Source of the DNA: Octopus vulgaris
Lineage: Eukaryota
Length of the DNA: 64,000 nt
Reading direction: 5' to 3'
Assembly (NCBI GenBank): GCA_951406725.2
Contig: OX597817.1
Span: forward strand, 80,724,001-80,788,000
The notes beneath the pieces were generated by a model. That model did no database searches. It was not told the DNA's origin and worked only from the letters and a program-made list of their open reading frames with translations. Shown in pieces: positions 3,182 through 53,093 of this stretch; the first letter of the stretch is position 1, and every line of letters starts with the position of its first letter. Position numbers and translations under genes: made by a program.

Positions 3182-3763
3182 AAGAGAGGGAGATCATGGT
3201 ATTCCTGATGCAGCAGTCAACAAAATGTTTGTACAATTCACTAGTAAACGAAAGAAATCTACAGCGTCCAACTTCGGTAGAGCTGGACACTCTGATAGGT
3301 GTCTTTGTGCTGTCAAGTAGAGAGAAAAAAGATCCCCGTCGGAAATAATCCTTGTTGTAAGTCAGTTGATTTTGAAGAGTAAATCCAAAGGCATCGGCAT
3401 ATTTCTGCGAGCTATTTCCATCAACATGGCTACAATGGCAGAGCAATAAATAGGAAATCTCTTCTTAGACCAGAAAAAATATCCAAACAAGCAAAGAGAA
3501 AAAGGGCTTTCAACTGAAAATGACTGTTACTTTTGAGATGTCTATATATATATATATTTATATTTTGGCGTTTTGCTGAGATTTTTCCTAAGAACACATT
3601 TTTCGTGCTTCGATTTTGGATTTGGTTTGCAAGATACTTTATTGAAAAGGTTGCAAGACGAAACGAAAATTTTTGGAAAATAAAAATAAGAAAAAAGTGG
3701 AAATTTTAACCGGTGAGTGTGTTAAATTATAAGGCACAAAAAGAAAATGACTCTCCCCAGACA

Positions 3764-4445
3764 TTCTTCGTGGTAATGGCGATTTGACGTCTATGTTTAA
3801 CATATTAAGTGTCCACCTTATTGGTCATTCCTCTTAATTTTATAAAATCTTCGGATTTTATAAATATGCTAAGACACTGGTTTTAATTGATAAATATCAA
3901 TTCCTACCCTTATTATTTAATTTTAACTGGTGAATTTGCTGCTGAATTTTATTAACTTAATTAACTGCAGAGTAATTTCCGGCCTCTGCGCACCAAAGTG
4001 AAGACATTTGAAAAATACACCCAAATATAAATTATAGAACATAATACTTGCTCGATTTCGGTTGAGCGTTCTGTATCAAGTTCTGGAAATTATGTTTTGT
4101 AAGCGACAGACTACGCTGACGATCTTGCAGATATCTGCGTGTTTGCATACGTAGATATTAACAAGTGAAACCACCGGTACGTGGGTGATCGTTTTCTTAT
4201 TTCGTATATTTACATTTGTCTTGCTAATTTTTACATTTTGGTGTGTTTTTTAGATTTTCCTTGAGAACTTATTCTTCTTGGTAACGGCGATTTGACGTCT
4301 ATGTTTAGCATATTAGGTGTCCACTTTAGTGGCCATTCCTCTTAATTATGTATGTAACATAATTTTTTATCTTCGGATTTTTTAAATATGCTAAAACACT
4401 GGTTTTAATTGATTAATATCAATTCCTACCCTTATTATTTAATTA
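3764..4445 (+). mobile_element. Retrozyme-like partial tandem repeat (~510-bp monomer, ~1.3 copies) ending at (TA)n
   Basis: Direct repeats at 3764-3922 and 4272-4445 (GATTTGACGT at 3781 and 4289, period 508) flank a hammerhead. Confidence 0.7.
4111..4184 (+). ncRNA. Type I hammerhead ribozyme with canonical core
   Basis: CTACG-CTGACGA-T-CTTG..GATATCTGCGT/ACGTAGATATT..CAAG-T-GAAA-CC(ACC)GG-TA-CGTGG. Stem I 5 bp, long stem II, stem III ACC/GGT. Predicted cleavage after A4179. Confidence 0.85.
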
Positions 4446-4580
4446 TATATATATATATATACATCCATATATATACATATATAGTTAATCCAAACAAGAA
4501 AACACAGAAAAAAACACAGCAACGCGAGGACGTGGAACAGTTAAAGTATTATTTGACGCGCAGGAAAGAAGAGAAGGAGG

Positions 4581-4614
4581 GTTTAACGTTTCGACGGAGC
4601 TCTTCGTCGGAAAC
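4581..4614 (-). ncRNA. Minimal hammerhead-like motif in a (TA)n-anchored element (~4482-4665)
   Basis: Minus: GTTT-CCGACGA-A-GAGCTCCGTC-GAAA-CG-TT-AAAC. Stem I GTTT/AAAC, palindromic ACGT at stem III. The same family 3' end recurs on + at 7198-7295. Confidence 0.6.
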
Positions 4615-4830
4615 AAGGAGAAGGAAAGATCCCAAGAAGGGAAGACAGAGGAAAAAATTATTTTTGCTGGTGGTGCTCAAGAGATTATATTATATTAAAT
4701 TAGAGATAAAACCACTATTAGGCAAATCAAACAATGAAAAACTTAAGCCAATACATAAAATTAATTAATTTATATTATTTTAAATATATATCAAAAGTAT
4801 TAAAAGTTTAATAAAGGATAATGAGTAAAA

Positions 4831-29369: not shown

Positions 29370-30018
<649 letters not shown>

Positions 30019-52121: not shown

Positions 52122-53045
52122 CAAAAAAAAAGTATGCCATTTTAATCCCGAGCAAAGCCGGGTATCCCTGCTATTTAGCGATAAAAGTAAATTCATAATT
52201 TATTGACAGAAGTAACTTCAAAACTCAAGCACGAGTTGGTCTTGATTGAGAATTTTTCTCCTTGCTGGAATGTGAATTCCGAGCCTTCAGTTAGGTGTGA
52301 GCATGTACCACAATTAAGTCGTCTGCGTTTTGTGCTTCCCAGAAACTTCTATGTCCTAACCCAGAAACTGCTATATCTTAACCCAGAAAATCTATGTCCT
52401 AACTTGTTCAGGTTATGGTTACAATTATGCGGGTCAAACAATCCTTACTTTAAGACGCAGAGTTACGCCGCATAAAGAACCGATTCGTTTTCCGCAGTAC
52501 AGGCAGATAGCCCTGAGCGAAAATATCGACAGATGCGCAAGAAATAAAATGCCGAATTTCCATATCTTACCGTTATACCAATGCAAAGATTCAATTTCTT
52601 TACAAGAACGCCTAAACAAGGAAAATCTGTTCATACAAAAGTACAGACCACACCATTATATACAAACTTTACTACTTCAAAAATTATACTGAGGAGTTTT
52701 TTGTCCCCTTGCCACCTGTTGCCTCGCTTTTTCAACTCCCTAGACTCATTCTTATTTTTCAAACATCCAAAATGGTGAGACGTCTTTGTCGCAAGAATTG
52801 ATTAGTTCACAATGTCCCTTGAAAAGTTAATTTAGATAACGAAAACGGGTTGGATATCACAATATCCATAAAATATGTACATATATTAACAAAAATTCTT
52901 TATAAAAAGATATTAAACTATGTGAAACGAAGGCATTTCTCTTCCACTTTTTATATGTTTTCCACATATTTTCAACTCATAATTTTGCCACGTGGTGGAT
53001 ACTAAATCTCCAGAATTTTTACTCCCTTTATATTTGTATATTTCT

Positions 53046-53093
<48 letters not shown>

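Follow-up and report, generated by a model that had tools for sequence, protein, structure and literature searches.

Insertions of Penelope-like elements (PLEs) take the form of partial tandems at (TA)n targets, with an inverted 5′ copy and, at one end, a tail of 30–40 bp (PMC8557442; PMC3846280). An anole PLE cuts and extends both target strands in vitro; the two internal sites at which it begins reverse transcription delimit the tail, and hammerhead cleavage is dispensable (PMC11167929). Retrozymes have been derived from PLE terminal repeats, and the proposal that they are non-autonomous PLEs was built on vertebrate pLTR similarity (Li 2026, bioRxiv 10.64898/2026.07.22.740005). The monomeric axolotl hammerhead HHR_Amex2 showed 22% cleavage, and its dimer cleaved better (PMC7229834).

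We describe an element in a 64-kb stretch of Octopus vulgaris DNA (the window) that is very probably an old, decayed copy of a non-coding ~530-nt hammerhead family, likely mobilised in trans by a Neptune-type PLE reverse transcriptase-endonuclease, with its own ribozyme predicted to be crippled. Animal non-LTR retrozymes (PMC7229834; Li 2026) resemble the family in several respects: their units stand head to tail, are non-coding and low in GC, carry one hammerhead of type I and have a predicted self-paired fold, and PLEs occur in the same genome; axolotl HHR_Amex2 also shares a U.U pair at the base of stem II (PMC7229834). The unit falls within the 51–972 bp range of Li 2026 and is larger than the 170–400 nt of PMC7229834. 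In contrast to those retrozymes, only partial tandems of less than two units and no arrays were found for the family, its stem II spans 44 nt, and its circles and cleavage are predictions. By the rule of Li 2026, which asks for two consecutive units with complete hammerheads, the locus is an inactive 'monomer': it has one complete hammerhead, whereas 3/101 family insertions have two.

Endonuclease-bearing (EN+) PLEs of the Neptune type share with the family the partial tandem (pLTR), 5′ truncation, an inverted 5′ arm, a tail at one end only, (TA)n targets and a type I hammerhead with a palindromic stem III upstream of both ends (PMC8557442, PMC3846280, PMC4209133 and PMC11167929). The family differs from them in lacking an ORF (RT plus GIY-YIG), in the distance of its ends beyond the cut site (~175 and ~260 nt) and in its tail of ~80–87 nt; no sequence link to a local autonomous family was found in the loci read. 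Plant LTR retrozymes, going by the introduction of Li 2026, are likewise non-autonomous, with direct repeats, a hammerhead and a proposed circle, but their hammerheads are of type III and lie inside true LTRs, and their target duplications measure 4 bp; the family has a type I hammerhead, which in the copy under study lies outside the repeated part, and repeat length varies between copies. The family fits the non-LTR retrozyme class (PMC7229834) and would work like a non-autonomous PLE.

A 1.4-unit insertion interrupted by a younger element

The element occupies about 3554–4444 on the plus strand and is a single-armed 1.4-mer interrupted by a 153-bp insert (3608–3760). Positions in the family are given as 'c' numbers, which refer to a 529-column consensus built from the 30 best loci. 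To the left lies a (TA)n run at 3541–3556, the likely insertion target. The 5′-truncated upstream unit starts at 3554–3607 (c312–366; 89% match to the consensus) and continues beyond the insert at 3761–3922 (c355–529, with a 14-nt deletion). It is joined to a full unit at 3923–4444 (c19–529, with ~20 nt missing at the junction) that has 33% GC and lies 7.6% from the consensus. A ~87-nt 'tail' (4357–4444) separates the position of the family's short 3′ end (c442, about 4356) from that of its long 3′ end (c529, 4444), and a second (TA)n run follows at 4445–4483.

The insert consists of a short inverted tail piece and a direct arm (+ strand) of a second family and is flanked by a 12-bp target duplication with one mismatch (3596–3607/3761–3772). 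Because 3608–3760 is an insertion of this second family, the original insertion reads (TA)n, 1.4 units, (TA)n. A first-pass annotation had set the element's start at 3764, which cuts off the upstream unit on the far side of the insert; the actual start is near 3554. It had further described ~160-bp direct repeats 508 bp apart and a unit of ~510 nt. The repeats are real (3763–3922 versus 4271–4444, E 1e-53; 16/161 sites differ), but the spacing of 508 applies to the first block and becomes 522 for the second, the smaller value resulting from indels particular to this copy: the 14-nt deletion in the upstream repeat, a 9-nt duplication and the loss of ~20 nt at the junction. Tandem hammerheads 530, 534 and 540 nt apart put the family unit at ~530 nt. 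Two other features of that annotation were borne out, as the element contains no sense-strand ATG ORF of at least 40 aa and its 3′ end at 4444 runs directly into (TA)n.

The second family is younger and high-copy, with at least 1154 exact 28-mer matches and top copies ~95% alike. It too has PLE anatomy, with inverted arms and short target duplications, and a ~62-nt tail is found at one end in 12/12 two-armed insertions (48 loci). Its core resembles that of a hammerhead (UUGAAAA ... GAAA), with a stem II of 5 bp in most copies and a weak stem I, and contigs from sequencing runs guessed to be RNA cover the family heavily. Directly after the element, on the minus strand at 4486–4680, lies another common repeat, a similar piece of which flanks a further family insertion (L133); by eye, it contains a minimal hammerhead-like motif near 4580–4615, in which the core is a CCGACGA variant, stem III is palindromic and stem II is weakened in the copy at hand.

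The element belongs to a dispersed family of old insertions

A DNA search of the genome (2.8 Gb, 227 contigs) returned 3190 candidates, 40 of which were scored. The exact hammerhead pattern occurs in at least 335 copies genome-wide, compared with 0 for the reversed control, and patterns elsewhere in the unit have at least 222 (c345–372) and at least 150 (c10–31) matches, all three counts being lower bounds. The retrozyme reading presupposed a sequence present in more than one copy, and the element indeed belongs to a dispersed family with at least 335 hammerhead-bearing members. The locus itself is ordinary, one decayed copy among hundreds.

The nearest sampled relative of this copy is 9.9% away. 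Across 101 insertions, the closest of 4121 pairs differ by 4.1%, and this sample gave no sign of recent activity. At the rate given in PMC13282606 (0.09 equals 25 million years), the copy would be ~14–20 million years old, provided that the rate suits the host. A search of sequencing runs listed no RNA run that carries the sequence. The contigs from guessed-RNA runs contain family-like pieces that mostly carry family alleles and not those of the 3554–4444 copy; their depth profiles are unable to rank parts of the unit or to reveal a circle. Three pairs of inverted, duplicated family insertions ~11.5 kb apart (G000:C7:58.74-58.96 Mb; L206, L207) apparently stem from segmental duplication. Literature searches listed no cephalopod retrozyme; supplements, Repbase and Dfam lay outside these searches and may hold the family.

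A conserved type I hammerhead that is predicted to misfold in this copy

A strict type I descriptor has a single match in the window, with its core at 4116. The putative ribozyme extends over 4101–4194 (+) and comprises a distal stem I (4101–4106/4189–4194), a proximal stem I (4111–4115/4180–4184), the core (CUGACGA at 4116–4122 and GAAA at 4167–4170), a long stem II (4124–4165) and stem III (4170–4178), with cleavage predicted after A4179. A U.U pair (4123/4166) takes the place 10.1–11.1; the position numbers 10.1, 11.1 and C3–G8 are those of the standard hammerhead scheme. A relaxed descriptor has four matches in the window, including a CCGAUGA core with a long stem II at 2222 (+) and a UUGAAAA core with a palindromic stem III at 29985 (−). 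The description of 4111–4184 as a textbook hammerhead needs qualification: the type I core is present, but the U.U pair and the 44-nt stem II depart from the textbook form, and no Rfam hammerhead is found at the gathering score or at E≤5.

We aligned 63 of 73 family hammerhead matches, leaving out eight second copies at one locus, one match with a deletion (L013) and one truncated match (L108). The core is intact in 56/63 copies, 35 of the 63 having been picked by a pattern that holds core letters, and the U.U pair recurs in 62/63. In the 62 distinct rows, 94.5% of cells are paired, and there are 65 two-sided changes versus 22 in shuffles (0/500 shuffles), although kin rows inflate such cell counts; by the number of pairs with a two-sided change (7 versus 4.4, 34/500 shuffles) the alignment is not exceptional. 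The signal comes from three pairs, in stem I (22 rows), stem II (27) and stem III (10), and that in stem I could also come from CpG decay. In most rows stem III remains a palindrome or close to one, in keeping with the dimeric hammerhead form of PMC4209133. The compensatory changes in all three stems and the kept palindrome suggest, as a matter of sequence comparison, that selection has acted on the ribozyme.

The copy at 3554–4444 departs from this pattern. It carries rare changes at 4174 (seen in 0/92 other segments), 4175 (4/93), 4183 (0/93) and 4187 (1/94), which in folding models create a rival hairpin at 4171–4184. The modelled probability of stem I is 0.04, versus 0.84 for the consensus, and falls to 0.01 or less in wider context; the copy ranks 10th lowest of 63, for which the median is 0.42. 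Since these changes are predicted to misfold the hammerhead, this copy is a poor candidate for activity, although dimerisation or protein binding could restore the fold. The first-pass annotation had put it forward as the best single candidate for an active ribozyme, a choice that neither this rank nor its ~10% distance from the nearest sampled relative favors. Its remark that one hammerhead cannot release a monomer is sound, as the locus holds a single hammerhead.

Insertion ends and arms follow the anatomy of Penelope-like elements

An end census covered 105 loci; removing 19 that duplicated a place already represented left 86 insertions. Among 131 outer 3′ ends, 58 lie at c425–455 (mostly 442), 56 at c505–529 (mostly 522 or 529) and 17 elsewhere, so that two fixed sites ~85 nt apart account for 114/131. 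The sequence between them (c442 to c529) corresponds to a tail of ~80–87 nt, which is longer than the 30–40 bp of the PLE papers. Microsatellite adjoins 100 of the 114 classified ends, in a host genome that is itself microsatellite-rich. Arms ending at c51–119 were considered as additional start sites and rejected, since unrelated non-microsatellite sequence follows them.

The two kinds of end are distributed by a simple rule. Of 45 two-armed (inverted) insertions, 31 pair a long with a short end, none pairs long with long or short with short, and 14 have one unclassifiable end; all 31 classifiable insertions thus have one end of each kind.

5′ ends, by comparison, are scattered. There is no pile-up at the cut site (c265/266), with 1/133 within 5 nt of it; clusters are found instead at c240–245, c310–312 and c341 and are probably microhomology joins. 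In the sample picked regardless of hammerhead (n=36), 1/36 comes that close to the cut site and 7/36 lie at c310–312, where the 3554–4444 copy likewise starts; the other two 5′-end samples were picked by length or by hammerhead and are biased accordingly. With 3′ ends fixed at two sites and 5′ ends not piling up at the cut site, the ends are not permuted and copying crosses the cut site freely.

The family thus combines variable 5′ truncation, an inverted second arm with the other end type, microsatellite flanks, a seamless junction and copies through the cut site. Fixed 3′ ends together with the long-and-short rule are the 'tail' and inversion signature of PLEs, and on this analogy the family is a non-autonomous PLE, that is, a non-LTR retrozyme.

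Candidate partner elements in the genome

Young PLEs with intact 781-aa RT and GIY-YIG ORFs are present in the genome, the RT falling just under the Pfam cut-off. Translation of the local PLE ORF includes a CxxxxCxxC linker, a mark of Neptune/Nematis according to PMC8557442. A young two-ORF Neptune-like family (L096–L101) contains many intact 781-aa RT/GIY-YIG frames and pLTRs that are 99–100% identical, and is likely still active; a hammerhead variant, UUGAUAA, was seen near its 3′ end. We also identified a PLE-linked family that has a hammerhead with a long stem II, a palindromic stem III, (TA)n flanks and two main ends ~36 and ~136 nt past the cut, ~100 nt apart. Autonomous PLEs of this genome leave stumps whose anatomy is that of the ~530-nt family.

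From 6136 GIY-YIG candidates, the top 30 loci and 12 wider PLE regions were read. No sequence shared between the unit and an autonomous PLE was found in these 30 loci and 12 regions or in 11 copies of the look-alike family, and the unit has no PLE protein similarity (best E 0.15). The role of a PLE is thus deduced from insertion anatomy and not from a sequence match to an autonomous PLE.

One insertion (L108) was considered as a product of template switching with an autonomous PLE, joined exactly at the two hammerheads. It proved to lie where a 6.9-kb segmental duplicate (98.6% identical) ends, an inverted paralog following farther on, and was therefore left out of the evidence. At L138 (G000:C1:8570500-8580000) and L210, a 6.9-kb segmental duplicate ends at a PLE 3′ UTR fused to a family hammerhead, the UTR being broken 54 nt before its own hammerhead core, so that the breakpoint adjoins both ribozymes. 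The window itself holds a PLE remnant at 52235–53050, with a GIY-YIG piece at 52390–52653 (Pfam) preceded by an inverted piece; by eye, it has a UUGAAAA-type hammerhead-like motif near 52815–52860 and a (TA)n end.

Partial tandems and the nature of the template

Junctions between units were counted in 101 insertions, comprising the 86 above and 15 long ones. One junction is present in 53, two on different arms in 5 and none in 43; two junctions on one arm occur in 0/101. In the 58/101 insertions with a seamless head-to-tail junction, copies that run past c1 continue into c529 of the ~530-nt unit. No arm reaches two units, the longest measuring about 970 nt, and an array of two full units was not seen. 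Two whole hammerheads share an arm in 3/101 insertions, namely L011 (G000:C1:27689925-27690925), L016 (G000:C5:20869417-20870260) and L185; both cores are intact in L011 and L016. Among the first 100 listed of at least 335 hammerhead matches there are two same-strand pairs and no triplet, and among the first 100 listed of at least 150 c10–31 matches there is no tandem junction pair; rare long arrays could lie at the further positions. Long arms roughly halve per 50–80 nt, so the absence of 2-mers is expected under a circular template too.

Units within an insertion are closely related. At 21 subfamily-diagnostic sites they agree in 349/369 comparisons, with 210 expected, and the distance within insertions is 7.5% versus 11.7% between them, being lower in 44/44. 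At 256 sites, none of the alleles follows the position of the unit (smallest p 0.055), and an orientation test for position-specific differences is only marginally null (149 same-orientation recurrences versus 135 ± 9, p 0.065). The distance of upstream units from one another (10.1%) is somewhat smaller than that from other full units (11.7%), the two values being taken over different stretches. This sharing of subfamily alleles makes a circular template plausible, although young tandem masters or gene conversion would also produce it.

The unit folds far better as a circle than its shuffles do (25 each; z −4.6 for the 3554–4444 copy and −6.5 for the consensus), and no helix in the fold requires a circle. 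A junction-spanning stem seen by eye was discarded, being absent both from an alignment fold of 21 junction matches (one spurious) and from the circular fold. Folding an alignment of 58 whole units gave no useful signal; in the consensus fold, changes in the long-range helices are mostly one-sided, with two-sided ones at 221–240 and 391–480.

A PLE-based model and its alternatives

In the model that we favor, a PLE protein would nick (TA)n DNA and reverse transcription would start at one of two internal RNA sites, one per target strand in two-armed insertions. Less firmly, the partial tandem would be rebuilt each time from one monomer, by way of a ~530-nt ligated circle or a template jump. For the 3554–4444 copy, the long start site would have been used, 1.4 units copied, and the second insertion received later. 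Judging from the sequences, the partial tandem was probably built by re-reading one monomer, and the chance that a covalent circle served as template falls slightly short of even. Tentatively, the template may be an RNA circle of ~530 nt, cut by the hammerhead, which a PLE enzyme would copy from two fixed internal starts, one per target strand.

Within the same PLE model, the template could instead be an uncut linear transcript of a two-unit master, with no circle and no need of the hammerhead for copying; we regard this as a serious contender, if not quite the expected outcome. Unprocessed RNA is the main template and hammerhead mutants still insert in the anole system (PMC11167929), cleavage was seen in only 1/9 tested dimers (Li 2026, bioRxiv 10.64898/2026.07.22.740005), and every family arm stays below two units. 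The arm lengths speak less clearly than they might, given how often arms end. The two units of a master should moreover drift apart, yet the 21 diagnostic sites are common to both and no allele is position-specific, and the compensatory changes and kept palindrome suggest selection on the ribozyme.

Rolling reverse transcription of a ~510-nt circle, the origin proposed in the first-pass annotation, would yield multimers with permuted ends and make this copy an active ribozyme. The seamless junctions, the alleles shared by units, the lack of a 5′-end pile-up at the cut site, the favorable circular fold and the 3/101 insertions with two hammerheads on one arm are all in its favor. Nevertheless, the reading is unlikely: the comparison of 86 insertions found ends fixed at two sites and not circularly permuted, no arm in 101 insertions has two junctions, the unit is ~530 nt, and the hammerhead of this copy is predicted to misfold. 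What survives of it is a plausible circle, along with the assignment to the class of hammerhead-bearing, non-coding, retrozyme-like retroelements in partial tandem, which our results uphold.

Alternatively, the unit could be no more than a pLTR, the terminal repeat of some long autonomous PLE that left the copies as 5′-truncated stumps; local autonomous PLEs do leave stumps of like anatomy. We consider this very improbable, because copies running past c1 enter another unit and not an ORF, the unit resembles no PLE protein, and the sole PLE ORF next to a family copy (L108) coincides with the breakpoint of a segmental duplication. Finally, a satellite or local duplication whose hammerhead-like motif arose by chance, as an AT-rich and microsatellite-rich window and the lack of an Rfam match might suggest, can be dismissed in view of the genome-wide motif matches against none for the reversed control and of the paired cells and two-sided changes in the hammerhead alignment.

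Implications

The non-autonomous PLE reading of this family adds evidence from insertion anatomy to the proposal of Li 2026 that retrozymes are non-autonomous PLEs. The rule of one long and one short end, together with allele sharing between units, bears on whether RNA circles are real transposition templates. If a PLE enzyme does copy a hammerhead-cut circle from two fixed internal starts, the retrozyme circle and the PLE 'tail' would be joined in one mechanism, which would explain how the partial tandem of PLEs is rebuilt at each jump. The short, ORF-free unit would, if the circle reading is true, offer a compact in vitro substrate on which a PLE protein could be given a circle or a linear dimer.
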